Shown here: one piece after another, positions 17,533 through 61,009 of the stretch
Position numbering within the stretch: the stretch's first letter is position 1
Layout: every line of letters begins with the position of its first letter
Source: an uncultured bacterium
GTDB taxonomy: Bacteria > DRYD01
Direction of reading: 5' to 3'
Assembly: GCA_937139605.1 (NCBI GenBank)
Contig: CAKZQG010000043.1
Coordinates: 6,692-70,691, forward strand
DNA: 64,000 nucleotides
The notes under the pieces: generated by a model
Databases searched by the model: none
Seen by the model: the letters and a program-made list of their open reading frames with translations, nothing else
Told to the model about the DNA's origin: nothing
Translations under genes and position numbers: made by a program

Positions 17533-17617
17533 AAATTATTTTTCTTAATATTAATATAATCATTTTTAAAAAAAAATCAAATAAAAAATCATAAAAATTA
17601 ACATTTTTTTTACATAT
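17533..17617. repeat. Direct repeat copy 1 flanking hicBA (85 bp)
   Basis: Matches 18156-18238 except two substitutions and an A-tract of 9 vs 7; contains TTAACA-N5-TTTACA at 17598-17614. Confidence 0.9.
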
Positions 17618-17635
17618 TTTTAGCTAATTTTATCA

Positions 17636-17869
17636 CTATTTTAGGGATATCCATTCTTTCAAAGTTATTTCTCGTCCTAAAATTTTTGATACTTCACGCA
17701 ACATAATACGTAATTGAGGAACAGAATACTCTTCATTAGAAGGAATAGCTAAACGATATTCATTATAAACCATATATTGGTGCCTTGTACCAGAAAAAGG
17801 TCCATCAAAACCTAATTGCCGTAGTTTTTTAATAAAATCTCTACGCTTACAAGGAGTCCAACGATTCAT
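17636..17869 (-). CDS. hicA: Type II toxin-antitoxin HicA family toxin
   Basis: IKKLRQLGF.GP.SGTRHQYM (G-x-H catalytic His), 77 aa, basic. Confidence 0.85.
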   Translation of the reverse strand: MNRWTPCKRRDFIKKLRQLGFDGPFSGTRHQYMVYNEYRLAIPSNEEYSVPQLRIMLREVSKILGREITLKEWISLK

Positions 17870-18119
17870 AAACTGGCTCCTTGTTTAAATCAATCCCATC
17901 AATTACTGGCAATTTGTGTTTCATTTTTAATCCTAACCATATCCATTCTTCTAAAGTAGATCTTAAATTGTTTTCACACTCCATTAACGTAGAACCAAAA
18001 GCTACAACACCTGTACAAATAGGAATATACCCTACAAATGTCCCATCTTCCAATTTATCATAAACAGCTTTTTCCATCGCTTGTCTAACATAATCACTAA
18101 ATAAAAATTGAAAACTCAT
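17847..18119 (-). CDS. hicB: Type II toxin-antitoxin HicB family antitoxin (short, no DNA-binding domain)
   Basis: EDGTFVGYIP..GVVAFGSTL.E..NL...LEEW...LP; overlaps hicA and lies upstream of it. Confidence 0.85.
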   Translation of the reverse strand: MSFQFLFSDYVRQAMEKAVYDKLEDGTFVGYIPICTGVVAFGSTLMECENNLRSTLEEWIWLGLKMKHKLPVIDGIDLNKEPVYESLDSL

Positions 18120-18155
18120 TCACTATAACACCTCAATTTAATTACCAATACTTAT

Positions 18156-18238
18156 AAATTATTCTTCTTAATATTAATATAATCATTTTTAAAAAAATCA
18201 AACAAAAAATCATAAAAATTAACATTTTTTTTACATAT
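18156..18238. repeat. Direct repeat copy 2 flanking hicBA (83 bp)
   Basis: Matches 17533-17617; contains TTAACA-N5-TTTACA at 18219-18235. Confidence 0.9.
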
Positions 18239-18348
18239 AAAAAAATAAAAACAAGCTAAAAACTATAGAATTTAAATAATTAAAAAGGAGAATGTCTAAA
18301 AATTTTTGAAATAAAAAATAGAGTGGTAGAAAAAGGGGGTAGATAAAT

Positions 18349-19458
18349 ATGTCAATAAATCCAATTGAATCAAACAACATAAAACCAATATCAGATACCA
18401 AAATACCAGATACCAAAATAAATACTGCAAATAATAATCCTACAACTACTAATAGTGCTATTTCTCCAACAGATACTATAAATACAAATCAAAGTTCTCC
18501 ACAAAATTTATCAGAAAATGTTCAAAATGAAAATACCCAAACTACACAAGAGCCACCTTTAGAAATGAAGCTCCAACAAGCTTTAACAGACAATAACTTA
18601 CCCCTTGAAGAAAAAATAAAACTAATAGATCAATTAATATCCCAAAAAAAACAAGAACTACAAAATATAGATAATGAAATAAATAATTTAAGAAATAATC
18701 CAATGAATACCCCAAATGATCCTGTTGCTCAAAATATTTTAAATATATCAAATCAAAATAAAATATTATCTTTAGAAAATCAAAGAAGTGCAATAAATAA
18801 TCAGATATCAATGTTAGAAGCTACCAAAAATAATCTAATAAATCTAAACAACCAAACCAGAAATTTAGCTTCCCAATTGGATAGTATTAATTCTGCTTAT
18901 GATACAAGCCTTAATCATCTTAAAATACTAAAAGAACAATTACAACAATATCATCAATCAATGGCAGCCAATTACACTAAACAAATAGAGATACTAAATA
19001 ACCAAATTAATCAAATAGAAAAGGAGATCCAAGATCTACTAAATACTCAGCCATCTAACCCTGATGAAGCAAATCAGATAGCACAGCAAATAGCTCAGAA
19101 AAGATCATTACAAGATGTTCTAAAAAACCAACTAGAAGGTACAAAACAACAATTATTTTCATTAAATCAAAATGTTCAACAACAGATAAAAGACTTAGAT
19201 GATCAAATAGCTAATACAATAAAAGAAAAACAATTAAATTATTATCAAAAATGGGCTTTAGATCAATCAATAAGAAGAGAAATAGAAAACATAGTATGGG
19301 GAGAAATGTTAGCTGAAAAAAACCATGTACTTCAGATGTGGAAAATGTATTATGATTATACTCAAAAAGTAAGACAAATGTGGCAAGATATATACACAAA
19401 ACAATTAGCAAATGAAACCTCATTTGTTCAAGCCTGGTCAGCAGTACTAGGAAAATAA
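18349..19458 (+). CDS. Hypothetical Q/N-rich coiled-coil protein with low-complexity N-terminus and Trp/Met-rich C-terminal segment
   Basis: 369-aa ORF with SD GGGGGT; S/T/N/P-rich N-terminus, long heptad-like Q/N/L region, C-terminus QMWKMYYDYTQKVRQMWQDIY...QAWSAVLGK. Confidence 0.8.
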   Translation: MSINPIESNNIKPISDTKIPDTKINTANNNPTTTNSAISPTDTINTNQSSPQNLSENVQNENTQTTQEPPLEMKLQQALTDNNLPLEEKIKLIDQLISQKKQELQNIDNEINNLRNNPMNTPNDPVAQNILNISNQNKILSLENQRSAINNQISMLEATKNNLINLNNQTRNLASQLDSINSAYDTSLNHLKILKEQLQQYHQSMAANYTKQIEILNNQINQIEKEIQDLLNTQPSNPDEANQIAQQIAQKRSLQDVLKNQLEGTKQQLFSLNQNVQQQIKDLDDQIANTIKEKQLNYYQKWALDQSIRREIENIVWGEMLAEKNHVLQMWKMYYDYTQKVRQMWQDIYTKQLANETSFVQAWSAVLGK

Positions 19459-19548
19459 TAAATATATAAAAAACTAAAAATTAAAAAAATTTCTTTAAAA
19501 TGCTTATTATATTATTTACTAAATAAAAATCTTAGCTTATAAAAAAAT

Positions 19549-20001
19549 ATGAAAACTTCTAAACTATTTTTTACATCCTTAATTATTATTCTATTATTAC
19601 TTACTAAATATACAAAAATAAACTATTACTTAGATTTTCTAAATATAGACACCATTACAATAAATAAAATTAATGTCATAGATATTGAATCAGATTTAAT
19701 TTGTAAATGTAGTAGCTGTATAAACCTAAATAAGCTTATTAATAATAATTGTTGTAAATCTTGTAAATGCTCAATAAAAAATATATTAAGACATAACTTA
19801 TATTACATTTCTCCTAATCAAATTAAACAAAATTTATTTTCTTATATTAATAAAATTCTTTATTCTTTTTTTCACTATATTATCAATATTTACTTTTTCA
19901 GGTTCTTTTTAGAAGCTTTTATAATATTTTTATATGATACATTCATATTAATATTAAATAAATATTCTTTATTTTTGTTTTCCATTAAACTTACGTGCTA
20001 G
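19549..20001 (+). CDS. Hypothetical Cys-rich membrane-anchored protein
   Basis: N-terminal hydrophobic stretch, CKCSSC and CCKSCKC clusters, hydrophobic C-terminus; upstream of the metal efflux genes. Confidence 0.5.
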   Translation: MKTSKLFFTSLIIILLLLTKYTKINYYLDFLNIDTITINKINVIDIESDLICKCSSCINLNKLINNNCCKSCKCSIKNILRHNLYYISPNQIKQNLFSYINKILYSFFHYIINIYFFRFFLEAFIIFLYDTFILILNKYSLFLFSIKLTC

Positions 20002-20095
20002 TTCTTTATTTTTAATTCTATTTCTTATTCCTTAATTTTAAGATTATTCTTTAGTTATTTTTTACATTTGTTTTAAAAGGCAGGTGTTTAAATAA

Positions 20096-21385
20096 ATGAA
20101 AAGAAAATTAAGCATATTTTTAATTATCCTTTTAATTATAATTACAAAATCATTTAGCAATAATAATTTAGATACTAATAATTTAAAAGGAAACATTAAC
20201 TATTTTATTAATCTTTTTTATCTGTATAATCCATATATTAGTAAATATGATTATTTAATTAAAGCAAATACTTACAATGCTAATAGCTTTTTATATTCCA
20301 ATTCCTTTGAATACGGTTTTTCTTTATCTAATATACCTTATAAATACATATTACCTAATAAAGCTGAACCTATGACATCATATACCTTGATGTATTCTAT
20401 TACAAATACCAACAAAAATAAAATAAATTCTAATATTAATTATATTTTAAAACAGAACGATATTATCCAATATGATAAATCAATATACATACTTGAATCT
20501 ACTTATCAAATAAAAAAGAACTTAATAAACATATATTTCCTAAATAATAAAAAAGAAATACTAAATAATATTTTAGATGAATTCTTAAAAATAAAAGAAC
20601 TAACTTCCTTAGATTATACTTATAATAAATCAAAGTTATCGGATATATTAATAATCGATAAAGAAATAACATCCTTAAATACTGAAATAAATTCAATAAA
20701 CTTAGAACTAAATAATAATATTCAAACAATATATTCTTTTATACCTTTAAACGATTTAGAAAACAAAATAAACAAAATCCTAAATAAATTTTATAATAAC
20801 ATAGATTTAAATTTAATAGATAATATCATTAATAACTACAATCCAAATAATTTAGATGAAATATATAATAATCCCTATCTAATTAAATTCCAAAAAGAAA
20901 AAGAGTTAATTTATTATGAAATATATAAAGAATCAAGCGCTAAATTACCGGATAATAAATTCTCTATAGAGTACTCTATAAGACCTCACTTAGATCATAT
21001 GTTTATGCTAAAATATTCAATAATGTTTGAAAATAAAAACATCTCTATAAATAAAATTAGAGCTCTTTATGAAAAAATAAATTCAATAAACTCAGAATAC
21101 ACAAACCAATCCCTTAAATTCAAAATATACTATAACTACATTATACTACAATTAAAAGATTCTAAAATATTATTATCAAATTTAACAAATGAAGAAAAAA
21201 AACAAGAAAAATATATTGAATCTCTAAAACTTGAATATATTTACAATAAATCAAAAATATTAGAAATTTATTTAGCTTATAAAGAATTACTTAATATTAA
21301 ATTAAAAAGAAACGAATTAGAAAATAAGATCTTTGATTTCTTAGTAGATTTACAGTACCTAAAAGGAGTGATAAATTATGAATAA
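20096..21385 (+). CDS. Putative TolC/CusC-like outer membrane efflux protein
   Basis: Signal peptide, two helical repeats each ending in Y..NKSK(L/I)..(I/L)L, first gene before a membrane fusion protein and an RND pump; highly divergent. Confidence 0.6.
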   Translation: MKRKLSIFLIILLIIITKSFSNNNLDTNNLKGNINYFINLFYLYNPYISKYDYLIKANTYNANSFLYSNSFEYGFSLSNIPYKYILPNKAEPMTSYTLMYSITNTNKNKINSNINYILKQNDIIQYDKSIYILESTYQIKKNLINIYFLNNKKEILNNILDEFLKIKELTSLDYTYNKSKLSDILIIDKEITSLNTEINSINLELNNNIQTIYSFIPLNDLENKINKILNKFYNNIDLNLIDNIINNYNPNNLDEIYNNPYLIKFQKEKELIYYEIYKESSAKLPDNKFSIEYSIRPHLDHMFMLKYSIMFENKNISINKIRALYEKINSINSEYTNQSLKFKIYYNYIILQLKDSKILLSNLTNEEKKQEKYIESLKLEYIYNKSKILEIYLAYKELLNIKLKRNELENKIFDFLVDLQYLKGVINYE

Positions 21386-22802: not shown

Positions 22803-22852
22803 ATTTATTAAATTTCACTAAATAATTTACCCAAATAAAGTGAGGTGTGTTT

Positions 22853-25800: not shown

Positions 25801-26011
25801 GACTGCTATTGTAATAATAGCTTCACTAACTCCGATTTTATACAGTCAAGAAATGGGTAGCGAAGTATTATCTAAGATAGTAGCCCCGATGATAGGAGGA
25901 ACTATCTCCTCTTTTATAACCGCCTTAATTTTCATACCACCTATCTATTTATTATTAAACATTAAAAAAACATTAAAAATATCTCAAAAGAAATTGTTAA
26001 AAATTAGTTAA
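22853..26011 (+). CDS. cusA: CusA/CzcA family heavy-metal RND efflux permease, probably Cu(I)/Ag(I)
   Basis: DVIPDLSDKQVIIYT, LGPDATGVGW, GAVKRVRPKLMT; Met residues at the three CusA-type metal-site contexts (LMYMPT, PLSMIET, RIDMVTTG). ATG at 22853 follows SD GAGGTG. Confidence 0.92.
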   Translation: MIKFLVNNSFVFVFISIILFFYSIIDLFILKNLRIDVIPDLSDKQVIIYTEYMGQTPQIVHDQVSYVIASNMMGLPGVKSVRSYSMPNFSLVYVIFNDNIDIYYARNRVLERLNTLNLPNGVTPLLGPDATGVGWAYQYVIISNTKNLSELWDFQNFYLKYILLSLPNVSEVASVGGYQKEFRIFIDPYKLYQYKISLKDIVNSIESNNISGSGKYLEISEKQVLINTNGYIKSINDIMKIKVNNFLKLRDIAYISEVPALRMGVADYNGDGQVVGGIVVIRYSADTYKTLELIKQKINEISQKLKDIQIIPVYDRSILIEETIKGLFKDIIKEMIITIIVVSIFLYSLRGSLIILYFMLFSTVIGLYIFNFSGINSNIMSLGGVMLAIGTMIDAGIVITENYYRNKNNYLLINTYLTKIYPQFIYNIFLKTDYKKINSSLNLLALDVSFKEVGIPIFNALLIVALSFLPFMFLHGQTGKLFSPLVITKTLLMLIGALFSIFLVIPLIKIISPITNKFILKIKEELINIIFEKIYEIIFKIVMKLWVVFAVIPILAWFLFFNYISSLKTEFMPYLREYTLMYMPTTIPSISIDTAYKILQYQDKIIKSVYEVDKVFGKAGRANSATDPAPLSMIETIITLKPKDQWRKNLTYEDIINELDSKLQIPGVVNGWTQPIKGRIDMVTTGIRTPLGIKIYSDNLDNLFNMSIKIENNLKKLDEFITVYAEKSAIHPYLVINYNRDKLFQYNLNINDIQEYFDYLFLNKPVSTVIDGIKRYNISLSVDENYKNNLLNFPLYINNEIIRLSDVCDIKFQESFSEIKFENGFFVNYIYLVPKKGVDLNLLIKKIDKVLNDLLTKENGTYFYEYSGDFKYWLDTINSLKLVLPLVFIIIVLLVYITFNDIKDVLLVFYLLPCSLIGSVIIMKLLNYNLSVASIAGIVATLGISVEMLIIMILYIKNSLKYAKDIKQGIFEGAVKRVRPKLMTAIVIIASLTPILYSQEMGSEVLSKIVAPMIGGTISSFITALIFIPPIYLLLNIKKTLKISQKKLLKIS

Positions 26012-26075
26012 AAAATAGTTAATAAAATGTAAATAGAGCCTAAAAATCACTAATTTTAGTAACATTTTTTTAACA
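25995..26075. promoter_or_regulatory. Array of 11-bp-periodic hexamer boxes upstream of the 26129 gene
   Basis: TGTTAA-AGTTAA-AGTTAA-TGTAAA at 25995, 26006, 26017, 26028, plus GTAACA-N5-TTAACA at 26059-26075; TATAAT at 26095. Confidence 0.55.
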
Positions 26076-26128: not shown

Positions 26129-27151
26129 ATGAATAGGATAATCATTGCTCTTTTAATAGCATTTATAACGATAAGTATAGCTTTAGCAGGAATCAAAAAA
26201 GGAGATATCCAAAAAGATTTCCACTATGATCAAACTATAACTAAAAATATTAATATAAATAAGCTAATAGAAGAATATTATGGTCATTATAATGGGACAA
26301 ATACATGGAGCGAAGAATTTAAAAACGCAATGAAACAAAGAGCATTAGATTTACTAAATGACAATAATATTAATCAGATTGTATCAGCTGAAATATTTGC
26401 TGCATTAGGGGTTAATGGGTTTGTATTTAATATAAATCCTTCTCAGCCACAATTTGATCAATTCTATTTTCCTGGAAGAGAAACAGTTGGCTACGTATTA
26501 GCCTCAAGAGATACTAATGGTAGCTATTTTATGGACATAGCAGAAGGCGATGTAAGCATAAGAATAGAAGGAGCAATAAGTGGCGAAGTAAAAGCAAAAG
26601 TAACAGCTACTCATAACATCAGCCCATTAGTAATAGACTTAGATCAAAATAATATAATAGATACTTATAACAAAAGTAATTTCTCTAAACCAGTAGCATC
26701 TAAAGAGGATTTTCAAAAAAGGAACTGGATAAGTATGGATATCTTAGGTGATGGAGTTATAAGAGTAGTAGAAAAATTAGGACCAAATGATGGATTATTA
26801 TTTACCACTAATGATATAAACAAAATAATTAATAGAGGATATATAACAGGTAAAGAATTATTTGGACAATCTGATGGATTTAAAAATGGATTTGAAAAAA
26901 TGAAACTACTTGATAAAGATAATAATAATATAATAGAAGGCAAAGAACTAAATAATGTATATGTATGGCAAGATAAAAATCAAGATGGAAAAGTCCAAGA
27001 AAATGAAATTCTTAACTCCAAAGATATAAATTTAACAAGAATTAATCTTAACTATAATTCTAAAATGATGAGCACAGCTACTATGAATGGAAAAACTACG
27101 ATAGTATGGGACTGGTATCCTGCAACCTTAGATGTAAAATTCTCAAAATAA
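26129..27151 (+). CDS. Secreted protein with EF-hand-like calcium-binding (SPLVIDLD) domain
   Basis: Signal peptide; SPLVIDLDQNN, DGLL, GKELFG, NGFEKMKLLDKDNN..I, VYVWQDKNQDG...NEI, as in the calcium-binding modules of RTX-associated proteins. Confidence 0.65.
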   Translation: MNRIIIALLIAFITISIALAGIKKGDIQKDFHYDQTITKNININKLIEEYYGHYNGTNTWSEEFKNAMKQRALDLLNDNNINQIVSAEIFAALGVNGFVFNINPSQPQFDQFYFPGRETVGYVLASRDTNGSYFMDIAEGDVSIRIEGAISGEVKAKVTATHNISPLVIDLDQNNIIDTYNKSNFSKPVASKEDFQKRNWISMDILGDGVIRVVEKLGPNDGLLFTTNDINKIINRGYITGKELFGQSDGFKNGFEKMKLLDKDNNNIIEGKELNNVYVWQDKNQDGKVQENEILNSKDINLTRINLNYNSKMMSTATMNGKTTIVWDWYPATLDVKFSK

Positions 27152-32894: not shown

Positions 32895-35150
32895 TTACCT
32901 TACCTCTTTCCAGTTAGTTATTCTTATAGATCTTGGAGTAGAAATATAACTTAAATTTATTCCATTAATATTAATAGTATTAGTTAAAGCAGTAATTGAA
33001 TTACCAGTTAAATCATTAGTAGTAGTAGTTCTCATAGAAGCCGGAACTATTATTTCAATTTTATAAGCTAAGGAAGCTCCTTTCATTTTAGGAGTACCTG
33101 TATTTTGCCAAACACCATTATTAATTCTGTATTGAACAAAATTAGAATTAGAAGGCCAAAAATTAAATTCTACTATCAAAGAGCCAGGCATTGGATTAGT
33201 TAATTGATTAGTAGAAACCCAAACAGGATTTCCTCCATTAAAACTATTAGCCATATATATTTTTAAATCATAACCATTAGAGTTTCCATTAATTGTTAAA
33301 GTAGCTTGTTTAATATAAAATCTTCCTCTATTGTAATTATAAGCATCCTGATCACTACCAACTAATGATATAAAATCCTTAGATTCCAAAATAAATCTAT
33401 CAGCATTAATATAATTATTCCCTAATTGTTCAAAAGTAAATAAAGTTCGCGAATGATTACCATCAGTAGCAACTATATCAAAAGCACTAGGATTAGATAA
33501 ATTCATAATAGATAGCCCATCAAAATCTGCATTTAGATTATCATTAGTTAATGCATATTGTCCTAAGAAATAACCTTTAAATTTTACATTGGTATTGCTT
33601 CCTTGATTAACTGAAGAATTAATAAAAGTATAAATCCTACCCCCAGGTTTAGATAAAACAACATTATTCCTATCTTTAAACATAATAGAGTAATTACTCA
33701 TATTAGAAGGAGAATAATTCCAATTATCAGTAGTTATAGATATATCTAATCTTCCATCGCGATTAAAATCAACTAATGTTATATTATTAGCAGCACCAAC
33801 ATACTCCGGATTGGGTGGGTTATTTGGATTACTTGAATTTACTTGAGTATTAGGGCCCTTATAATCCATACTTTCTACTACATTAGTATTCCTACTTGGA
33901 TTATTCTGATTATTTTTTGTATATAATGATATAACATTTTGTCCATTACTTAAAAACGGAGAATTATTATTAGTATTGGGAGTAGAATTAGGATTAAAAT
34001 TAGGATTACCTTTAAATATTTTAATATCAGGACTATCAGTATTAGCTACAACTAAATCAATTGTTCCATCATTATCTATATCCCCTAAATCTATTACCAA
34101 ATTACCCTTTTTGCCATTATTAAAACCAGTTGATAAACCTGTTTGATTTGAAGTCATTATTTTTATAGGATTTCCAAAAGTTATAGTATTAGATCCTGGA
34201 GTAGTTGTATTAGGAACATACCATATATTCCCATCTGCTCCCGCTATTATAATATCTTCTCTATTATCATTATTAAAGTCAATAGGAACTCTTCTTACGT
34301 TTCCATCTTGAACAATAAGAGCACGTGATTTCACAGCATCCGAAGTCCATTGAACATAAACTCGATCCCAAGTAGTCCCAGTAGAACTACCAGGAGTTAT
34401 AGTATTAATTTGATTAAAACTAAGATTACCTATATTATCTATTCTCCCACTTATACTATAAGCTCCCTCTATTTTTGAATAAGTATTATCAGGTTCATTA
34501 GAACCTATAACAAAAATATCAGGAATATTATCATTATTAAAATCTCCAATAGTAGCTGCATTAAAATTATGATTTATCCCACTATTTGTATAATCTGCTA
34601 TCTGAATTACATTAATATTGCTCCCCTGCTTTACTATTTTATTTATTTTTCTATTAAAAGTAATCCCTATACCAAATGAAGGGGTTAAAGTTGAATCCCA
34701 TAACACTATAGCATTATAATTCCCTCCGGGATTAATTAAAGAAGGAGCACTAAAATTAAAGTCAGTTACCACTTGAGAAAATTGCAAAGAATACCAAGTT
34801 CCATTTGATCTTACAAACCAAACATTAGGAACTCTATTTGAATTCAATATAGCATATGCATCCCTTAGCAAACTATTATTAAATACATTATACGGGTAAA
34901 TAATGTTATTAGTTGCTCCACTTGGTAAATTTATATTAGCTCCAATAATATCATTAACTCCTAAAAAATTAGAGTAATTACTTAAATAATTAGTGGGTAT
35001 TGTATTAACGTAGCTAGAAAAATTAGAATTTAAGAAACCAGGGGCATCTTTTACAGCATCAACTCCTGCTAAGGAAAATCTAAAAAAAATCGCAATAACT
35101 AAAATCATAAATATAGATAGTATGTAGAACCTCAAGATAAAATTTTTCAT
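32895..35150 (-). CDS. Secreted FG-GAP/VCBS-repeat protein, putative PilY1-like pilus tip adhesin
   Basis: Signal peptide; GDFNNDNIPDI, DFNNDNREDII, GDIDNDGTIDLVV, DFNRDGRLDI repeats; C-terminal ITNWKEVR like the SWRE ending of PilY1; first gene of a minor-pilin operon. Confidence 0.65.
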   Translation of the reverse strand: MKNFILRFYILSIFMILVIAIFFRFSLAGVDAVKDAPGFLNSNFSSYVNTIPTNYLSNYSNFLGVNDIIGANINLPSGATNNIIYPYNVFNNSLLRDAYAILNSNRVPNVWFVRSNGTWYSLQFSQVVTDFNFSAPSLINPGGNYNAIVLWDSTLTPSFGIGITFNRKINKIVKQGSNINVIQIADYTNSGINHNFNAATIGDFNNDNIPDIFVIGSNEPDNTYSKIEGAYSISGRIDNIGNLSFNQINTITPGSSTGTTWDRVYVQWTSDAVKSRALIVQDGNVRRVPIDFNNDNREDIIIAGADGNIWYVPNTTTPGSNTITFGNPIKIMTSNQTGLSTGFNNGKKGNLVIDLGDIDNDGTIDLVVANTDSPDIKIFKGNPNFNPNSTPNTNNNSPFLSNGQNVISLYTKNNQNNPSRNTNVVESMDYKGPNTQVNSSNPNNPPNPEYVGAANNITLVDFNRDGRLDISITTDNWNYSPSNMSNYSIMFKDRNNVVLSKPGGRIYTFINSSVNQGSNTNVKFKGYFLGQYALTNDNLNADFDGLSIMNLSNPSAFDIVATDGNHSRTLFTFEQLGNNYINADRFILESKDFISLVGSDQDAYNYNRGRFYIKQATLTINGNSNGYDLKIYMANSFNGGNPVWVSTNQLTNPMPGSLIVEFNFWPSNSNFVQYRINNGVWQNTGTPKMKGASLAYKIEIIVPASMRTTTTNDLTGNSITALTNTININGINLSYISTPRSIRITNWKEVR

Positions 35151-35198: not shown

Positions 35199-35280
35199 AT
35201 TATAATAATTTTTTTTAAAAAGTCAAGTATTTAGTGGGGGGGGGGAATTGTAAAATGTTTGTTAAATTTATTAAATTATT
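35199..35280 (-). promoter_or_regulatory. Promoter of pilus operon 1 with C10 tract (copy A of duplicated promoter)
   Basis: On the minus strand: TTAACA-aacat-TTTACA (35265-35249), C10 (35245-35236), TTGACT (35226-35221), 16 nt, TATAAT (35204-35199). Near-identical to 60929-61009. Confidence 0.85.
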
Positions 35281-35323
35281 TTCAAAATTATTAATTAATT
35301 AAAATATTTTTGTAAAAAAATTG

Positions 35324-35722
35324 TTAAAAATAAATAATTAACAAAGAATTAGCAACTGTTAAATCCCTTTCATGTGAAATACTTACTTTAACTATAAAAT
35401 CTTTAACATCCTTACTAAAAAAATTTGATAATTTAACTAAAATATAATCTTTATTAACAAAATCTACAGAATTATTTAAAATCGAGATAGAATTAAAATT
35501 AATCTTAAAAGATAAGGCTTTAATGATAGCTTCTTTAGCAGCAAACCTACCCGCTAAAAACTCTACCCTTCTTTTATAATTAAATATCTTACTATATCTT
35601 TCAATTTCAAAAATACTTAAAACCCTTTTAATAAATCTAAAATTATAAATATTTTTTGATATTCTTTTATTATAAACAATATCTATCCCTGTATTAATAA
35701 AGAAGTGATCATTAAATAACAT
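35324..35722 (-). CDS. acpS: Holo-ACP synthase
   Basis: GIDIV, FLAGRFAAKEAIIKA, VSISHERD. Confidence 0.93.
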   Translation of the reverse strand: MLFNDHFFINTGIDIVYNKRISKNIYNFRFIKRVLSIFEIERYSKIFNYKRRVEFLAGRFAAKEAIIKALSFKINFNSISILNNSVDFVNKDYILVKLSNFFSKDVKDFIVKVSISHERDLTVANSLLIIYF

Positions 35723-35728
35723 TAATTA

Positions 35729-37354
35729 TTATTTATTTTCATCAACCCAAGTTTTTTTAAGGATTTCAGCGATTTCATTAGGATTAGATTTAGCAACCTG
35801 CTCTATTTCAGTAACTAATGTTTTAAATTCCACATTTTCTTGAGTAGCTTCAGATTTATTTCCCAACTTATCAGTAGTTAAATCCACAACAGTATTAGAA
35901 GTGACTTCTTCTTTTTGAGAGTAATTAGGAGCTATATTAATAGCCATTCTATCATAACTTAGTTTATTTTGCTTAAATAAGAAAACCCCCAATACTCCCA
36001 AAGCCCCTATAGCTGCTACAGATGCTAAAAATATAACTAAAGATTGTATAGGGAACGAATTAGATTTAACAGGAACAGCTGGAGGAGCTACTACTACAGG
36101 ATTAGAAACTTGATTAGTACTATTAGCAAAGAACGGTAAATTAACTACAGCTATACTGTCCCCTCTTTCCTCTTTTAATCCAATGGCATTTTTAATATAT
36201 TGTTGTACTTGAGCTTTAGTAGAATCAGATACATTATTTAAAGCCACTGCTACAGTTATTCTCTTTATAGAAGACCCGGGGTTTTTAACTACTTCAGTAA
36301 CTACTTGATCCACTTTTTGATTAACAATAGTTTGTTGTTGAATTTCACTAGCATTTTCTTTATTTTTATCTAAAGCTCCACCTTCATATTGTTTTGTTTT
36401 TTTAGTTTCTTGTTTAGATAAAACCTTAGAATTAGGATCATCAGGAAGCCCATATTGTTCTCGATATATCTTGATCCTATCCCAATCCAGTTCAACATCA
36501 ACATTAACAGTATAATTCCCTACCCCTAATATTTGATCTAATGATTGAGTTAATTTAGAAACATACATATTTTCTACTTTTTGCTTAATTCCAAAGGTAT
36601 CTTCCACAGGGTTAACTGCATTAGGGTTTAATATCCTTCCATTAACTACTAAAGATATATTATTAGAATCTAAACCTTCTACAGAATTAGCAACAGTTTG
36701 AATAATAGCACTCGCTTCTTCATTAGATAAGGATTTTGCGGGAAAAGTATTTAAAATAATAGACGCCTTAACAGGTTCCTTAGTTTCAGATAAGGGATCG
36801 TTCTTAGGAATAGCTAAGGAAACATTAACATTACTAATTTTATCTGGATAAAACTCCTTTATTTTAGTAGATAATGCATATTCTGTAGATTGTTTTATAT
36901 AGTTTTCCCAAGCTTCCTTAGTGGTACCTGGCGGAGGAGCTTTTAACTCAGGAGCAACATTAGGTTTTATAAACCCTTGCTTTACTACATCAGTATAAAC
37001 CCTATTATGATACTTAGGATGAATATAAACTTGCCCTAAAGCATCATCTATCCTATATTCTTTTATACCATTATTTTCTAAGTAATTTTTAACGTTAGCT
37101 AACTGAGCTTTATCCAATTTACCCCCAGGATAAAGCGGAATATACTCATTAGATTTAGAATACAAAAATATAGTAATACCAATAGCAATAATTAAGATAA
37201 TAACAACAGCAATAATAGCTTTTTGAGTATTATTGAGATTTTTTAAAGTTTCAAATAATTGATTAGGTGAAGCTGTAGGAGAAGCCGCTCCTGCTTGAGT
37301 TAATCTAGTATTAGTAGGTCGCGTTGGTCTAGTAGAACCAGGTCTAACTGTCAC
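35729..37354 (-). CDS. fliF: FliF-like (flagellar MS-ring / SctJ family) basal-body ring protein, orphan
   Basis: N-terminal TM then EYIPLY..LD...NV..YLE..GI; VNVSLAIP, SIILN, IIQTVANSVEGLDSNNISLV; LGVGNYTVNVDVELDWD; IKRITVAVALN; AIGLKEERGDSIAVVNLPF; C-terminal TM; ends NPNEIAEILKKTW. Confidence 0.8.
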   Translation of the reverse strand: MTVRPGSTRPTRPTNTRLTQAGAASPTASPNQLFETLKNLNNTQKAIIAVVIILIIAIGITIFLYSKSNEYIPLYPGGKLDKAQLANVKNYLENNGIKEYRIDDALGQVYIHPKYHNRVYTDVVKQGFIKPNVAPELKAPPPGTTKEAWENYIKQSTEYALSTKIKEFYPDKISNVNVSLAIPKNDPLSETKEPVKASIILNTFPAKSLSNEEASAIIQTVANSVEGLDSNNISLVVNGRILNPNAVNPVEDTFGIKQKVENMYVSKLTQSLDQILGVGNYTVNVDVELDWDRIKIYREQYGLPDDPNSKVLSKQETKKTKQYEGGALDKNKENASEIQQQTIVNQKVDQVVTEVVKNPGSSIKRITVAVALNNVSDSTKAQVQQYIKNAIGLKEERGDSIAVVNLPFFANSTNQVSNPVVVAPPAVPVKSNSFPIQSLVIFLASVAAIGALGVLGVFLFKQNKLSYDRMAINIAPNYSQKEEVTSNTVVDLTTDKLGNKSEATQENVEFKTLVTEIEQVAKSNPNEIAEILKKTWVDENK

Positions 37355-37435
37355 AAACTATCCCCCCTTTATATCTTTAATCCTATTATATATTTTAAAT
37401 AAAAATTAAAAAATCCCCTATAAAATATTAAAAAA

Positions 37436-37452
37436 TTAACATCTTTTTTACA
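37436..37452. promoter_or_regulatory. TTAACA-N5-TTTACA box upstream of the FliF-like gene
   Basis: Exact TTAACA-tcttt-TTTACA in the intergenic region. Confidence 0.6.
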
Positions 37453-54376: not shown

Positions 54377-54401
54377 AACAAAATATCAAAAATCAAAAAT
54401 T

Positions 54402-55127: not shown

Positions 55128-55154
55128 TCAAATATGATTAATAAATAATTACTA

Positions 55155-56674: not shown

Positions 56675-57413
56675 AAAATTAAATATAAAAGAAATCATAA
56701 TAGACATAGGGTTAGATGAAGTAGGTAGAGGCTCATTATTTGGCCCCTTAGTTATAGCTTCATTTATGATAATTAAAATTGATAATAAAAATCCTTATCA
56801 AAAAATTGAACTAAAAGATAGTAAAAAACTAACTTATAATCAAAGATTAGATTTATTTAAAAAAATAATAAATATAATAAAAAATAATAAAGATATTTCT
56901 AAAATCTATTTTTGCTTCATTTCAAATGATATCATAGATAAAATCAATATACTAAATGCAAATTTACTAGGGTTTGAAAAATTAATTATTCAAAATTTAA
57001 AAAATATTTTAAATAATAAAGTAATTGTCAAAAATATAAATAAGGTAAAACATATTAATTTTTATATAGATGGAGATAAAAAACCTAAGGATATAGAAAA
57101 TAAAATTCAAGAATTTTTAAAAACTTATCATAGTTTTGAAATGCTAAAAAATAAAATAAATATATTAAATTATATTAAGGGAGATAGTAATATAAAGGTT
57201 ATCCAGGCAGCAGCGATTTTAGCCAAAGTAACAAGAGATAAATACATACAATATTTATCTAAAAAATATCCAATTTATGATTCCCGCTATAATTTATATA
57301 ATAACAAGGGCTACTATGAAGAAGCTCATATTAAAGGTATAAAAAATTATGGTTTAACAATTTACCACCGGAAATCCTTCTTAAAAAAATATCTTCAACA
57401 AACCCTTTTTTAA
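56658..57413 (+). CDS. rnhB: Ribonuclease HII
   Basis: GLDEVGRGSLFGPLV, KDSKKL, IDG, KGD...IQAAAILAKVTRD, NKGY, HRKSF. Confidence 0.93.
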   Translation: MKKNNKKLNIKEIIIDIGLDEVGRGSLFGPLVIASFMIIKIDNKNPYQKIELKDSKKLTYNQRLDLFKKIINIIKNNKDISKIYFCFISNDIIDKINILNANLLGFEKLIIQNLKNILNNKVIVKNINKVKHINFYIDGDKKPKDIENKIQEFLKTYHSFEMLKNKINILNYIKGDSNIKVIQAAAILAKVTRDKYIQYLSKKYPIYDSRYNLYNNKGYYEEAHIKGIKNYGLTIYHRKSFLKKYLQQTLF

Positions 57414-57463
57414 GTAATATGATTCTTCGGAATTATACAATGCTAGTTAAGTTAGCAGAAGTA

Positions 57464-58507
57464 TTAAGCAATAGTAGGATTTACAGAAGTTTTTTCAAAT
57501 AACTTCATAACAGGAATAATAGCTATATTAGCAAATAATTTAGTAAGTCCAATATCCTTTAATTTATTAGCAATAAAGTCCCAGGCTCCAATTAAGCCTA
57601 AGATTCCTCCTACTATAGTTCCGACAGCTGCACCTACTGGTCCCCCTATAGCTGTTCCAATAGCAGCTAAAGCAACAGTTCCACCTATATCTAACACTTT
57701 TCTTATAATCAAATCAGCCAAATCAACTCCTTTTTCTTGTATAGGTTTATTGCTTATCAATATGTCCACAACTTGCTTAATAGATAATATAGCATCTAGA
57801 GCTTTTCCAATAATACCTGCTACCTTAGCAAATGGTCTTAATTTAGTCATAATTTTTTTAGTCATATCTGAAAGCATCTGAGTTACTTTATTATTTAATA
57901 TCTTTTTTATTGCTGGGAATTTTTTAGCCAATTCTTTTGATAACTCTGCCATTTTGGTTCCTACTTTCCCAAGTTTTTTAATTTTTTTAAATACCCTACT
58001 CACTTGTTGACAACCATCTAAAAGTCCTCTTATAGAATTAGCTAAATCTGGAAACGCTTGTTTTAACGTAATTACTCCATTTACTACATCTTCCAAATCT
58101 GTTGTTTTTTGTAATAATTCCATTGTTTTGTTTAAAGTAGTAGCTTGCTCAATAGAAGATACTTTATTACTTGCTGCTTCTAATATCTGAATTATTTGGT
58201 TCTTAATCTCTTCTGCTTTAGATTTTAATTGATTTTCATCTACCTCATTTGCATTTTGGTTACTCTCTAGTCTATTTGCTAAATCCAAAATATCTTCTTT
58301 ATTTTCCAGTTTATTTGTTTCTATTGAAGATAATGCGCTTTCATAATTAGAAACTAAACTTCCTTGTTTTCTCAAGCCTTCTTTTAAATCCGCTCTATAA
58401 GAAACATTATCTTTTTTATTTGTTTTATTTTTATTCCTGTTTATATTTTGATTATTATCAATAATAGCATAATCAGAAATACTTGGTCTAAAATCTATAC
58501 TATCTAT
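57464..58507 (-). CDS. Hypothetical protein with amphipathic helices and a C-terminal Gly-rich hydrophobic hairpin (pore-former/translocator-like)
   Basis: Frame open from 58507 (ATA, just after SD GGGGGGAGG) through the ORF-track segment 57464-58375; GGTVALAAIGTAIGGPVGAAVGTIVGGILGLIG near the C-terminus. The start is uncertain. Confidence 0.7.
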   Translation of the reverse strand: MDSIDFRPSISDYAIIDNNQNINRNKNKTNKKDNVSYRADLKEGLRKQGSLVSNYESALSSIETNKLENKEDILDLANRLESNQNANEVDENQLKSKAEEIKNQIIQILEAASNKVSSIEQATTLNKTMELLQKTTDLEDVVNGVITLKQAFPDLANSIRGLLDGCQQVSRVFKKIKKLGKVGTKMAELSKELAKKFPAIKKILNNKVTQMLSDMTKKIMTKLRPFAKVAGIIGKALDAILSIKQVVDILISNKPIQEKGVDLADLIIRKVLDIGGTVALAAIGTAIGGPVGAAVGTIVGGILGLIGAWDFIANKLKDIGLTKLFANIAIIPVMKLFEKTSVNPTIA

Positions 58508-58581
58508 TCATCCTCCCCCCAACATTTTACTATTAATAATATATTTCATTTTTTATTTTTTAAACCTAAATTAAAAAAAAA

Positions 58582-58598
58582 TTAACAAAAATTTTACA
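58582..58598. promoter_or_regulatory. TTAACA-N5-TTTACA box upstream of the pore-former-like gene
   Basis: Exact TTAACA-aaaat-TTTACA, with a third in-phase TTAAAA at 58571. Confidence 0.6.
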
Positions 58599-58901
58599 AA
58601 ATTAAATAACTCTATAACATCTAAAGCAAATCCTTTTCTGAAGTAAAAAATATTATTTATTCAAAATAGAAATAAAAAATATTAGAAAAATCTGAATTAT
58701 TTTACTTATAGAATAGTCAGCTTAAGCATTGAAATTTGGAAGCTTGATATAGCAAACAACAGTTCGTTTTTACTACATCCACATCTTTAAAAGCTGCTTT
58801 AAAAGCTTGATTTCCTCCTGTTTTATTCTCTACTGATACCTAACAAGCCCTATTTCATAATATTCAATTTCCATTTCATATATACTTCTTGCTAGTGTTT
58901 G

Positions 58902-59507
58902 TTAAAAATCGCTTGATACTTTTAGAATAATAAAGCTTTTACCACCAGGTAGTGGAGTTCCACTATATCTCATCAAACTCAACTTATTATTCTCCATAAA
59001 ATATTCTAAAATATTATTTACTACAACTAATTTGACTTTTAATAAAGAAGCAATAACAAAACTATCTGTATTTCCTTCTTTTATTAACTTCTTTAAATTG
59101 TTTAAAAATTCCTCAAAATTTTCAATATAAACTTTATAATAATTAAACAATAATAAAGGTTTAACAATAATGGAAGAAAATATTTCTTCACTTAGCCATT
59201 TTATATCAATTAATTCTGCATTACTTTTAGATAAATCTTTTAAAATATTAACAATATTATCTTTATTAGGAATTATATTTTGATAATTATCTTTATTATT
59301 TTCATAAAAACTGATTAATTTTCTAACATTTAGGGTTCTATAGATATTATCATTAATATAAATGAATTCACAAAGTAGTTTTATAACAGCAGATTTTTCT
59401 TCATTAAAATCCATAATTTTATAAAATTCATTTAATTTGGGTTTAATAAGTATTTCTTTAACTTTTTGATGGAACATTCTATGTTTTTGTAAAGTAGAGT
59501 TTTCCAT
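58902..59507 (-). CDS. Hypothetical protein
   Basis: 201-aa ORF with SD-like AGGGGCGTAGG; no confident family. Confidence 0.6.
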   Translation of the reverse strand: MENSTLQKHRMFHQKVKEILIKPKLNEFYKIMDFNEEKSAVIKLLCEFIYINDNIYRTLNVRKLISFYENNKDNYQNIIPNKDNIVNILKDLSKSNAELIDIKWLSEEIFSSIIVKPLLLFNYYKVYIENFEEFLNNLKKLIKEGNTDSFVIASLLKVKLVVVNNILEYFMENNKLSLMRYSGTPLPGGKSFIILKVSSDF

Positions 59508-59587
59508 AATTCCTACGCCCCTTTTTATATGTACATTATGTATCTATAAATTACCCTTAATTATTAAGTATTATCTTCTTAATAATT

Positions 59588-60727
59588 TTAAGATTCTTCA
59601 ATAAGTTCGATATTAGCACGTGGATATATTATTTCTTCATTAGTATCTAATATTTTAATTTTAGCTATTCTTACTTTAGATTCTGTAGGTATTTTAGTAG
59701 GTTCTTCAGGGAGATCTATTATTTGAGCGATTTTTCCAAAATATGGTTCTCTTATAATTCTTACTAAAGCTCCTTTTTCCAAGACAGTAGAAAATTGCTT
59801 ATCTTCTATTTTTGTAAGATCTTCTATTTCATTAAGAAATGGGATAATGATTTCGGGTCTTATAACTCCAGCACGTATTTGAGTAGCTCCAGAGATAGAT
59901 GCTTTTTTATTATTTGATTCTTTAAGTAAATTAAAAGTTTTATATGCCATTGAGATCTTCCCAAATCCTTCAGTAACTATTAAAGTAAATGGGATATTTT
60001 CGGTACCAGTAACAGCAACCCCTATCTCATATCCTAAAATTTCTTTAATAGTTTCTGCATCTATACCACCTGTTATTATACCTAACACTCCTAATTCAAT
60101 CAATTTATCTATAATTTCTTTTGTAATATAGCTACCACCAACAACAATATCACCTTTTTCTACATTTTCCAAAAATTTTTCATTATTTATTTCATCTTGT
60201 GGGTTATTAGCAATAACTTTAATTTTTCCGATTTTTTCTTTACCTATTCCAAAAATCCCTTGAATATAAGTACCGTAGGTCTTAATGATAGCTCCGACTT
60301 TTGGGATAACCTCTTCAACTATTCCGTCTACAAAAGCAATTGTTTCTATTGGAGTTGGATCTTTTCTTATTATTATTTGCCCTGTAGAAGTAGAAATAGA
60401 TTCAATAGTACCTGTGATAGTTGATTTTATTTCTTGTTTAAATAATCCGAAAAAAGAGGAATATTTAACAATAGTTTCTCCTTCTAATACTCTATCTCCT
60501 TCTTTTTTTAATAAAAATAGTGGTAGTTCTTGGGGATCAATTGCTAACTTATTAGCTGCATTGATAATATCGACAGGTCCCGGTAAAAATGCCTTAGCAA
60601 TAGCATCTTCTGCATTAACTTTATCATTAACATTAACAATAACATTACCTTCAATAGGTAATTTTCGTTCTTTTTTAATAACTGTTCTTTTTAGGACTTT
60701 AAGGCCTGGTACGTATGCGTGAGCCAT
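59588..60727 (-). CDS. Conserved hypothetical protein with barrel-sandwich-hybrid-like segments and a C-terminal KOW-like motif
   Basis: MAHAYVPGLKV start, ERKLP..G.V.V, S.ITGTIE.I, IQGIFGIG, VTEGFG, GATQIRAGVIRPE, KGALVRIIREPYFG. Confidence 0.75.
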   Translation of the reverse strand: MAHAYVPGLKVLKRTVIKKERKLPIEGNVIVNVNDKVNAEDAIAKAFLPGPVDIINAANKLAIDPQELPLFLLKKEGDRVLEGETIVKYSSFFGLFKQEIKSTITGTIESISTSTGQIIIRKDPTPIETIAFVDGIVEEVIPKVGAIIKTYGTYIQGIFGIGKEKIGKIKVIANNPQDEINNEKFLENVEKGDIVVGGSYITKEIIDKLIELGVLGIITGGIDAETIKEILGYEIGVAVTGTENIPFTLIVTEGFGKISMAYKTFNLLKESNNKKASISGATQIRAGVIRPEIIIPFLNEIEDLTKIEDKQFSTVLEKGALVRIIREPYFGKIAQIIDLPEEPTKIPTESKVRIAKIKILDTNEEIIYPRANIELIEES

Positions 60728-60742
60728 AAAGAAGATAAGGGA

Positions 60743-60815
60743 TGACCCTGACGGGATTCGAACCCGTGTCTCCGGCTTGAAGGGCCGGTGTCCTAGTCCA
60801 CTAGACGACAGGGCC
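60743..60815 (-). tRNA. tRNA-Glu (anticodon TTC)
   Basis: GGCCCTG/CAGGGTC acceptor stem, CCGGC-CCTTCAA-GCCGG anticodon arm, GGTTCGAATCC T-loop; CCA not encoded. Confidence 0.96.
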
Positions 60816-60928
60816 TTTTATTTCCTTTATATTTATATTCTTCTACTTTTTTAAAAAAACTCCTCCTTTTTATCAACTAAACTAAAAAATACCATAACAA
60901 ATATCAAAAAACAATTAACAATATTAAT

Positions 60929-61009
60929 AATAATTTAATAAATTTAACAAACATTTTACAATTCCCCCCCCCACTAAACACTTGACTTTTTAAAAAAAAT
61001 TATTATAAT
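60929..61009 (+). promoter_or_regulatory. Promoter of pilus operon 2 with C9 tract (copy B of duplicated promoter)
   Basis: TTAACA-aacat-TTTACA (60944-60960), C9 (60964-60972), TTGACT (60982-60987), 16 nt, TATAAT (61004-61009). Confidence 0.85.

Follow-up and report, generated by a model that had tools for sequence, protein, structure and literature searches.

A recurrent TTAACA-N5-TTTACA box and its candidate WalR-like regulator in a Calescibacterota lineage

Genes and boxes in the window

The DNA analysed here is a 64-kb stretch (the window) from the 1.88 Mb genome of an uncultured hot-spring bacterium of the Calescibacterota/EM19 lineage, labelled G000 (completeness 88.5%; 24% GC, with numerous T-runs). 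It contains repeated copies of a 17-bp box, TTAACA-N5-TTTACA, which reads TGTAAA-N5-TGTTAA on the opposite strand. The boxes and the features around them are as follows.

16601-17515, minus: EEP (endonuclease/exonuclease/phosphatase-family) nuclease, without signal peptide
17553-17558, minus: predicted -10 TATATT of the EEP nuclease gene, 39 nt past the box, preceded by an A-tract and TGAT
17598-17614, plus: exact box TTAACATTTTTTTTACA; its minus-strand reading TGTAAA-N5-TGTTAA points at the EEP nuclease gene
17847-18119, minus: HicB-like antitoxin gene (UPF0150), served by the duplicated box-plus-promoter copy
18176-18181, minus: -10 TATATT of hicB, within that duplicated copy
18219-18235, plus: exact box duplicating the one at 17598; lies upstream of minus-strand hicB
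18349-19458, plus: coiled-coil gene, adjoining box 18219
25995-26075, no strand assigned: degenerate array of four TGTTAA-like units, 11/12-bp phased, on the plus strand
32895-35150, minus: FG-GAP-repeat protein, 751 aa, first gene of its operon, downstream of two boxes
35199-35226, minus: core promoter TTGACT-N16-TATAAT of gene 32895-35150
35236-35245, minus: poly-C tract (C10) between box and -35
35249-35265, minus: exact box in the FG-GAP protein/pilus-tip operon promoter, 22 nt upstream of the -35
35311-35327, minus: another exact box, overlapping the stop codon of an acpS-like gene and 62 bp upstream of box 35249
35729-37354, minus: FliF/YscJ-family MS-ring protein (PF01514, PF08345)
37385-37390, minus: TATAAT, 45 nt past the box, predicted as the -10 of the fliF-like gene
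37436-37452, plus: exact box, pointing as TGTAAA-N5-TGTTAA at the fliF-like gene, whose GTG start is 81 nt away
57464-58507, minus: orphan protein whose C-terminus carries a glycine-zipper membrane segment
58582-58598, plus: exact box; its minus-strand reading points at gene 57464-58375/58507
60944-60960, plus: exact box duplicating the one at 35249; the pilin-like operon's -35 lies 21 nt downstream
60964-60972, plus: poly-C tract (C9) between box and -35
60982-61009, plus: core promoter TTGACT-N16-TATAAT of the pilin-like operon
61050-61568, plus: pilin-like protein, first gene of its operon, with a weak match to an N-terminal methylation-type motif

The initial annotation had reported seven exact copies, and an exact-match scan recovered each of them at its position and strand, against a mean of 0.05 in 100 dinucleotide-preserving shuffles, none of which reached seven. 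Gene positions confirm that each copy lies between genes or at the end of one, and flank comparison agrees with the proposed two duplications and five independent copies: boxes 17598 and 18219 have about 60 bp of left flank in common, boxes 35249 (minus) and 60944 (plus) have the entire promoter in common, and the flanks of the other copies are unrelated. The 11-bp-periodic array suggested at 25995-26075 also holds up, with phased units TGTTAA, AGTTAA, AGTTAA and TGTAAA followed by GTAACA-N5-TTAACA, and two position-weight-matrix matches (scores 17.3 and 17.0).

Some gene models required comment. The EEP nuclease start is revised to the ATG at 17515, which follows a GAGG ribosome-binding site, while the frame of the orphan gene at 57464 runs open upstream past the listed TTG as far as an ATA codon (58505-58507), 4 nt after the ribosome-binding site GGGGGGAGG. 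The FliF-like protein scores 119 bits against TIGR00206, slightly under the cut-off, and the pilin-like protein (61050-61568) scores 18.9 bits against PF07963, under the cut-off of 21.2. Recounting of the poly-C tracts of the duplicated pilin promoters gave C10 and C9, one C apart.

Distribution, conservation and targets of the box

Genome-wide, the exact box occurs 31 times in G000, versus 0-4 times at each other spacing (N0 to N22 compared), and within intergenic DNA the control spacings are 3-5 times rarer than N5. There are 65 copies of the relaxed form TTWACA-N5-TTWACA and 18 of the variant TTAACA-N5-TTAACA. The sites share the consensus TTWACA-N5-TTWACA (TGTWAA-N5-TGTWAA on the opposite strand) and a T-rich spacer; hexamer position 3 accepts W only, and the C/G of ACA/TGT is the most strongly conserved. 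The objection that the motif might be equally frequent inside coding sequences fails because 63 of the 65 relaxed copies are intergenic, in a genome with an intergenic share of 10.3%, and because matrix matches scoring at least 14 number 87 in intergenic and 6 in coding DNA.

The box is present in 10 of 10 family genomes (5-25 exact copies each, with 31 in G000, usually more than the reversed-pattern control), with about none outside the family. Upstream of fliF-like orthologues it is kept at equal distance and orientation in 8 related genomes, and upstream of flhB orthologues in 5, with a 1-mismatch form in 3 more. At these orthologues, including those of a second genus, the box is retained, the flanks have diverged and the half-sites show A/T swaps; the expected conservation upstream of orthologues is thereby borne out in another genus, at promoters of genes with about 55% protein identity. 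In the genus-2 genome G003, a box-flanked G000 gene is the best hit for 12 of 27 box-flanked proteins (about 1 expected, binomial P = 4e-11), box orientation and distance being mostly unchanged at the shared targets, and the genus-2 orthologue of the coiled-coil gene (L102) is likewise box-bearing. The box is a real, conserved regulatory site, and the box-flanked gene set is conserved between genera.

Targets include the FliF-like ring, FlhB-FlhA, the pilin-like operons, a SigH-type sigma factor, the EEP nuclease, HicB, S8/M14/C11 peptidases, a lytic (SLT) transglycosylase and an M15/Hedgehog-like protein, and many are orphan proteins without signal peptides. The description of a surface/export regulon is supported by the conservation of the set between genera, but the set is wider than first stated, taking in the sigma factor, peptidases, flhBA and an oriC-side array. 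The accompanying claim that housekeeping promoters lack the box is only approximately true, because some copies stand between divergent genes of which one is a housekeeping gene (mnmG, clpP, dapA and tdk, named by sequence appearance).

Three further observations are unexplained extras: flagellin is absent alongside the flagellar targets, the dense box array adjoining oriC is genus-specific, and 4 of 121 CRISPR spacers carry the box.

Promoter geometry and the candidate reader

A -10-like hexamer lies at +36 to +46 from TGTTAA in 26 of 49 sites, versus 5-15 in other distance bins and 17% in random intergenic DNA, with the caveat that such hexamers come up easily in 24% GC DNA. Judged by sequence, a -10 at 36-46 nt past TGTTAA is the geometry of an activator site. 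Two geometries are distinguished, each kept gene by gene between genera. In geometry (a), TGTAAA-N5-TGTTAA faces the gene, with the -10-like hexamer 36-46 nt later, often as an A-tract and TGnTATAAT without a good -35; this would place the box at roughly -51 to -67, where class-I activators sit (fliF, flhBA, EEP nuclease, hicB), and binding would activate these promoters. In geometry (b), the box has the opposite orientation and overlaps the -35 position (TTAACA-N16-18 to the -10-like hexamer) or, alternatively, lies 21-22 nt upstream of a full TTGACT-N16-TATAAT, as in the two pilin-like operons, where the length of the poly-C tract (C10 vs C9) sets the box-promoter distance.

In the proposed mechanism, the box would be the operator of one transcription factor, with a regulon of roughly 45-60 promoters in G000. 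Its presumed reader is the sole conserved OmpR/PhoB-family response regulator of the lineage (234 aa; C24:8825-9526 in G000), which would bind both hexamers, one helical turn apart, as a head-to-tail dimer, with an adjacent cytoplasmic histidine kinase sensing the signal. Each of three genus-1 genomes contains exactly one PF00486 protein, and each of 10 family genomes one strongly conserved orthologue of the regulator; another regulator could be missing from the 88.5% complete genome, yet all three genus-1 genomes show exactly one. The best solved-structure match of the DNA-binding domain is B. subtilis YycF/WalR (2d1v, E = 2e-25), with recognition helix RTVDVHIRRLRQKIEDN in the candidate versus RTVDVTVRRLREKIEDN in YycF. 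YycF is also its best NCBIfam model, but at 274.8 against an equivalog cut-off of 340, and the RpaB (second-best), MtrA and PhoB models score nearly as high. The resemblance of TGTAAA-N5-TGTTAA to the WalR box (consensus TGTWAH-N5-TGTWAH), noted from the outset, extends to identity with the VicR site footprinted with DNase at nlmC (PMC4168254, Table 1).

A genuine operator with another reader, whether a non-OmpR factor, a nucleoid-associated or architectural protein, or a regulator in the unassembled 11%, is possible but rather unlikely. Autoregulation, common in two-component systems, is not seen because the regulator's own operon has no upstream box (best matrix score 8, versus at least 11 at true sites), and no HisKA domain is recognisable in the partner kinase, nor, by eye, any obvious transmembrane segment, unlike in WalK. 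The box is used in both orientations, which counts against an OmpR-family reader because some activators of this family, such as PhoB, do not tolerate reversal of the site; its occurrence either way round, with similar spacing to start codons, would suit an architectural factor. The oriC-side array and the CRISPR spacers hint at a role beyond gene regulation, and some genus-2 genomes have extra weak PF00486 hits. However, TGT-first direct hexamer repeats 11 bp apart are a hallmark of OmpR/PhoB winged-helix dimers, and we know of no other family that reads this pattern. The exact box sequence is that of the footprinted VicR site, and exactly one such regulator, with a WalR/PhoB-like recognition helix, is conserved in all 10 motif-bearing genomes.

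It is improbable that the box is instead a core-promoter element (-35-like or UP-like) read by RNA polymerase with a housekeeping or SigH-type sigma factor. TTAACA and TTTACA look like TTGACA, the second hexamer of 26059-26075 is a plausible -35 of gene 26129-27151 (N18-19 to TATAAT), one regulon member is a SigH-type sigma factor, an element containing AGG is found repeatedly 16-20 nt past the box, and when the sites are read with TTAACA towards the gene, 19 of 49 have a -10-like hexamer starting 4-14 nt past the box (about 8.5 expected). But sigma elements are strictly directional, whereas single-target genes show both orientations (about 12 each), kept per gene across genera; the strongest spacing signal, 36-46 nt from the -10, is too distant for a -35; the pilin promoters own a separate TTGACT-N16-TATAAT 21-22 nt downstream; and the conserved C/G of ACA/TGT is unlike the A/T tract of UP elements. 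Functionless remnants of dispersed repeats or mobile elements, or an AT-rich compositional artefact, might be suspected from the two recently duplicated pairs in the window and from the 24% GC and many T-runs, but this reading is refuted in practice by the enrichment of N5 spacing alone, the unrelated flanks outside the duplications, the retention of the box at orthologous promoters despite diverged surrounding DNA, and the shared box-flanked set.

Relation to known regulatory systems

The WalR/YycF/VicR system of Bacillota shares with the present one the hexamers TGTAAA and TGTTAA, the direct repeat, the 5-nt spacer, the closest DNA-binding domain, and targets of the cell-wall hydrolase type (SLT transglycosylase, M14 peptidase, M15/Hedgehog-like protein). 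In S. aureus, dnaA is also under WalR regulation (PMC10746227), and here the box array abuts oriC. By contrast, Calescibacterota are likely Gram-negative (PMC4791363), the candidate falls under the YycF equivalog cut-off, and its kinase is cytoplasmic and not WalK-like. The H of hexamer position 6 is nearly always A here, and the regulon comprises mainly flagellar basal-body/export genes, pilin-like operons, secreted proteases and orphans.

The B. subtilis PhoP boxes are TT(A/T/C)ACA repeats with a period of about 11 bp, equal to the present box in other-strand hexamer and periodicity; the candidate and PhoB have the recognition helix RTVDVHIRRLR in common, and one box class overlaps the -35 position. 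By contrast, the targets seen here include no pst/pho genes, pairs prevail over four-repeat arrays, and the main class, at -51 to -67, is farther upstream than the pho box of E. coli PhoB. Cyanobacterial HLR1 consists of (G/T)TTACA(T/A)(T/A) direct repeats, at which RpaB activates or represses by position; it shares the TTTACA repeats and an OmpR-family reader, RpaB being the candidate's second-best model, but its period is 10 bp versus 11 bp here.

In Alphaproteobacteria, the OmpR-family regulator CtrA, whose box is TTAA-N7-TTAAC, controls fliF-class flagellar genes as well as pilin genes, and it also binds the replication origin. The TTAACA-N5-TTAACA variant is literally TTAA-N7-TTAAC, and fliF, flhBA, the pilin-like operons and an origin-side array are box-bearing here; however, CtrA orthology of the candidate is rejected by the NCBIfam CtrA model, which gives 165 bits against a cut-off of 350, and the origin array is genus-specific. 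Bordetella BvgA drives fim2/fim3, with a poly-C tract between activator site and promoter. The pilin-like promoters similarly combine a response-regulator-type site, a C-tract of about 10 and a core promoter before fimbria/pilus genes, in two copies differing by one C within one genome. BvgA, however, belongs to the NarL/FixJ family, the tract here is upstream of the -35 rather than between activator site and -10, and none of the 9 related genomes showed the box/poly-C/promoter arrangement.

The proposal that one response regulator governs one surface/export regulon thus gains support, at the level of sequence, from the family-wide box, the orthologous promoters, the conserved target set and the sole WalR-like regulator. 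The box is probably the operator of the lineage's single WalR-like OmpR/PhoB-family regulator, controlling a conserved regulon.

Distribution and promoter placement of the box

The initial annotation had proposed that a recurrent 17-bp box, TTAACA-N5-TTTACA (TGTAAA-N5-TGTTAA on the other strand), outlines a candidate surface/export regulon. Seven exact copies and a degenerate array are present in the window (C43:6692-70691), as originally located:

17598-17614, plus strand: exact box
18219-18235, plus strand: exact box
35249-35265, minus strand: exact box
35311-35327, minus strand: exact box
37436-37452, plus strand: exact box
58582-58598, plus strand: exact box
60944-60960, plus strand: exact box
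25995-26075, plus strand: four TGTTAA-like units in 11-12-bp phase, then GTAACA-N5-TTAACA

Two pairs are duplications, 17598/18219 together with its promoter and 35249 (minus)/60944 (plus) as part of a duplicated promoter, so the window holds five independent copies; the expected number of exact boxes is 0.05 (mean of 100 dinucleotide-preserving shuffles). In the whole assembly (1.88 Mb, 24% GC, 45 contigs), the exact box occurs 31 times, against 0-4 copies for the same two hexamers at other spacings (0 to 22), and only the N5 spacing, i.e. an 11-bp period, is enriched; phased four-unit runs occur at window position 25995 and on contig C26. When one mismatch is permitted, position 3 of the hexamer is the only one that varies, and only between A and T; the motif is thus TTWACA-N5-TTWACA with a T-rich spacer. 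Of these relaxed boxes, 63/65 lie outside ORFs of 70 or more codons, in DNA that makes up 10.3% of the genome. A position-weight matrix gives 87 intergenic and 6 coding matches at a score of at least 14, and one-mismatch matches in intergenic DNA number 64 at N5 versus 13-23 at control spacings. The box is equally frequent neither in coding sequences nor in shuffled DNA, and the regulon proposal stands on both counts.

Read toward the gene as TGTAAA-N5-TGTTAA, the box is followed by a -10-like hexamer at a distance of 36-46 nt in 26/49 sites, compared with 5-15 in other distance bins and 17% in random intergenic DNA. The usual layout is box, ~25 nt, A-tract, TGnTATAAT, ~30 nt, GGAGG and ATG. 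Judged from this spacing, the box would occupy positions around -51 to -67 in promoters without a good -35, where a class-I activator is expected to bind. In the window, the activator-type layout is found at the EEP nuclease gene, hicB, the fliF-like gene and the gene at 57464. The opposite orientation takes two arrangements. In the first, a -10-like hexamer lies 4-14 nt past the box (19/49 sites), with TTAACA at the -35 position; in the second, seen at the two pilin-like operons, a complete TTGACT-N16-TATAAT promoter lies 22 and 21 nt downstream of the box, and a poly-C tract separates the box from the -35:

35236-35245: C10, pilin-operon promoter
60964-60972: C9, duplicated pilin-operon promoter

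Between the C10 and C9 versions the box-to-promoter distance differs by 1 bp; this poly-C architecture was found in 0/9 of the other family genomes.

A sigma -35 element always points toward its gene and keeps a constant 16-18 nt from the -10. Here, each orientation of the box is used at about a dozen single-target sites and is kept gene by gene between genera, so a -35-type sigma-factor element is disfavoured; the prevailing distance from box to -10 is 36-46 nt, and no position beyond the box is conserved. A G-containing element, tAGGrAtttt, was also observed 16-20 nt beyond TGTTAA at ~10/49 boxes (e.g. window 37414-37420), at constant spacing from the box and in otherwise G-free surroundings. 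It is conserved in both genera upstream of the fliF-like gene, and its distance to the -10 varies from 19 to 29 nt (19 at flhB, 29 at fliF). A SigH-type promoter was rejected, the AGG element being fixed relative to the box and not to the -10, and a GAAT -10 being absent.

Conservation in the family and a candidate regulator

The lineage is Calescibacterota/EM19. The exact box is present in 10/10 genomes of the family (two genera), with 5-25 copies per relative and 31 in the genome studied here, counts that are usually above the reversed-pattern control; outside the family there are 0-3 copies per genome. In eight related genomes, TGTWAA-N5-TGTWAA lies ~80-85 nt before the start codon of the fliF-like gene, whose products share 53-91% identity. 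This box follows immediately after the upstream gene's stop codon, its half-sites switch between TGTAAA and TGTTAA among the orthologues, and its flanks have diverged. The boxes at flhB resemble this case in their conserved placement, with an exact relaxed box upstream in five relatives and one-mismatch versions in three more. A regulon comparison was based on 21 exact-box sites of G003, a genome of the second genus. Among its box-flanked proteins with a match in the present genome, 12/27 have a box-flanked gene as best match, where ~1 is expected by chance (binomial P = 4e-11), and box orientation and distance are mostly alike at the shared targets, which argues for a conserved regulon and not a compositional accident. 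Comparative genomics thereby supports the earlier interpretation that one regulator controls a surface/export regulon. A dispersed repeat or MITE, whose copies would share extended flanks or terminal repeats and be missing from orthologous sites of relatives, was rejected: information is confined to the 17-19-bp core, so these are not fragments of a longer repeat, and the box occurs at orthologous promoters of both genera.

TGT hexamers directly repeated at one helical turn are the hallmark of OmpR/PhoB-family winged-helix dimers, whose operators consist of two or more direct repeats of a 6-7-bp unit with centres 10-11 bp apart. The repeats found here are one helical turn apart, and every family genome that carries them encodes an OmpR-family regulator; like OmpR/PhoB operators, the box is placed within promoter regions, spaced from the core elements so that it could function. 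The genome has one Trans_reg_C (PF00486) protein, a response regulator at C24:8825-9526 that is followed by a cytoplasmic histidine kinase. Each genome of its genus likewise encodes exactly one PF00486 protein, and a strongly conserved orthologue of the regulator (E about 1e-32) is present in 10/10 family genomes; the counterpart in a 'Candidatus Calescibacterium sp.' MAG is 83% identical. The best solved structure for the DNA-binding domain is B. subtilis YycF/WalR (2d1v, E = 2e-25), followed by RegX3, S. aureus WalR, VicR and MtrA, and the recognition helix is nearly identical to that of YycF/WalR. WalR sites have the published consensus TGTWAH-N5-TGTWAH, and the S. mutans VicR footprint at nlmC is TGTAAA-N5-TGTTAA (PMC4168254). 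All 65 relaxed sites fit the WalR consensus, with A/T alone allowed at position 3. As the one OmpR-type protein conserved family-wide, with a WalR-like domain and matching WalR/VicR sites, the C24 regulator is taken as the likeliest reader of the box, an assignment we regard as reasonably probable. Autoregulation was dropped as an idea, there being no box near the regulator's own operon.

The regulator would act in the manner of WalR/PhoP-type proteins. It is not a demonstrated WalR orthologue, because neither its equivalog score nor the architecture of its kinase corresponds. The best NCBIfam model is YycF (NF040534), at 274.8 bits, below the cut-off of 340, and the RpaB, MtrA and PhoB models score close behind. 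WalK is a membrane kinase with two transmembrane segments and HAMP, PAS and HisKA domains, whereas in the adjacent 391-aa kinase HATPase_c is the only Pfam domain found, and no N-terminal hydrophobic segments are evident when the sequence is read by eye. A variant of the box matches the CtrA box TTAA-N7-TTAAC; a CtrA regulon was rejected, the regulator scoring 165 bits against the CtrA model cut-off of 350 and the lineage not being alphaproteobacterial. By comparison of sequences, the box is predicted to be a WalR/PhoP-type response-regulator site, a known kind of element, in an unstudied phylum with an unusual, conserved surface/export regulon.

Box-associated genes, oriC and CRISPR spacers

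The targets include the FliF/YscJ-family ring protein in the window, FlhB followed by a 713-aa FlhA-like protein, several pilin-like or minor-pilin-like operons (both of those in the window among them), a sigma factor passing the NCBIfam SigH model, an EEP-family nuclease and HicB. Further targets are an S8 subtilase, an M14 carboxypeptidase, two C11 peptidases, a PAD_porph-like protein, an SLT lytic transglycosylase (best NCBIfam model, flagellar-assembly transglycosylase), a Hedgehog/M15-like protein, and many orphan proteins without signal peptides (N/Q-rich, coiled-coil or glycine-zipper). Weak boxes precede the flgBC and flgFG rod operons. A Pfam search of ten box-flanked orphan proteins gave essentially no matches. 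The WalR regulon is centred on peptidoglycan hydrolases. The SLT transglycosylase, the M14 carboxypeptidase and the Hedgehog/M15-like protein are among the targets here, most of which, however, are flagellar, pilus, protease or orphan genes. Polar N-termini without signal peptides are 2.8-fold enriched in box-flanked ORFs (23% vs 9.4%, P = 0.003), a modest effect in an uncurated ORF set.

The SigH-type sigma factor (C37:6679-7551) passes NCBIfam NF006148 in a host outside Bacillota, has a long lysine-rich N-terminal extension and has a box 125 nt upstream; its orthologue in the second genus is 81% identical, with the box present too. A duplicated box-plus-promoter module (window 17533-17617 and 18156-18238) brackets hicB-hicA, so that the toxin-antitoxin pair and the nuclease gene each have a copy of one putative box-dependent promoter. 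On the minus strand at window 58505-58520, ATGA-ATA comes after a strong ribosome-binding site, GGGGGGAGG. Its ATG begins a three-codon ORF, MNR*, and the long reading frame runs open from ATA, with the N-terminus IDSIDFRPSISDYAIIDNNQ resembling other N-termini of the regulon; this could reflect non-canonical initiation, a leader peptide or an error in the assembly.

Outside the window, contig C26 carries 11 canonical DnaA boxes TTATCCACA in ~280 bp (C26:51960-52240); this is the sole canonical DnaA-box cluster of the genome and marks oriC. It is adjoined by a 1.3-kb non-coding array (together C26:50600-52240, locus L122), in which 13 box pairs in a single orientation are interleaved with 12 palindromes ATTGACTTTTGTCAAT, and which contains 40 sigma-70-like promoter matches versus 14 +/- 4 in shuffles (~3-fold). 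The dense array had suggested TTTTTWACA as a possible DnaA box of this organism, an idea rejected in view of the separate canonical cluster right alongside. The sister species, G002, shares the array, whereas the 15-box oriC of G006, from the second genus, has none beside it; the array is thus not family-wide. Boxes beside oriC have precedents in CtrA and MtrA, which bind replication origins. A further precedent is the control of dnaA by WalR in S. aureus (PMC10746227). Two tandem 61-bp GC-rich units (GGTTATTTTAACCCCCTAATGGGGTATGGGGCGAAGCC...; C26:52557-52676, L122:2358-2477) also adjoin oriC in this 24% GC genome. An Rfam search of the oriC-adjacent region gave only a sub-threshold, spurious tmRNA match.

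The full TTWACA-N5-TTWACA box is also found in 4/121 CRISPR spacers (arrays on contigs C16, C22 and C45, outside the window), a density ~25 times that of the genome. Two of these spacers share the design TTGTTAAAAT(T)TAACAAA...TTTWACAAA. No protospacers of the four were found in viral contigs; their sole metagenome match is the same CRISPR array on a 164-kb contig of the same population, and by self-BLAST they match chromosomal boxes only in part. Separately, several type III CRISPR spacers nearly match C26:35265-35814 and C36:12600-14010 (1-2 mismatches over 27-33 nt), possibly reflecting prophage or self-targeting.

A possible export machine and significance of the regulon

FliF and FlhB are conserved in 10/10 family genomes, and an FlhA-like gene follows flhB in the genome studied here. 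Flagellin_N (PF00669) had no match in 10/10 family genomes. The only Flg_bb_rod proteins of the present genome are four FlgB/C/F/G-like proteins on contig C11, and no match to a hook-type protein was found in it. FliF, FlhB-FlhA and rod genes are retained, with FliF and FlhBA under the box. The box also precedes ~20-30 proteins that lack signal peptides and have polar N-termini, as well as the type IV pilus-like operons; these proteins include the S8 subtilase, C11 and M14 peptidases, a PAD-like deiminase, the EEP nuclease, a lytic transglycosylase, and coiled-coil and glycine-zipper membrane proteins. A speculative reading, to which we give a low probability, is that the genes under the box encode a type III export machine, flagellum-derived but filament-less, together with its cargo. 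On this reading, a WalR-like two-component system would act as master switch for a contact or secretion programme in Calescibacterota, and in this genus the switch would also be wired to oriC through ~12 box-dependent promoter-like units firing toward it. If true, this would be a free-living case in which a flagellar type III apparatus has been turned to protein secretion.

Calescibacterota (EM19) live in hot springs and are uncultured; to our knowledge, no gene regulation has been described in them. The box yields a testable regulon of ~50 promoters with one named candidate regulator, tying together orphan flagellar basal-body genes, pilus operons, a SigH-type sigma factor and many unannotated, probably exported proteins. 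Through their common box, 'hypothetical' genes that belong together are thus grouped, and the regulator and its 17-bp site offer a simple experimental handle in a lineage beyond culture.
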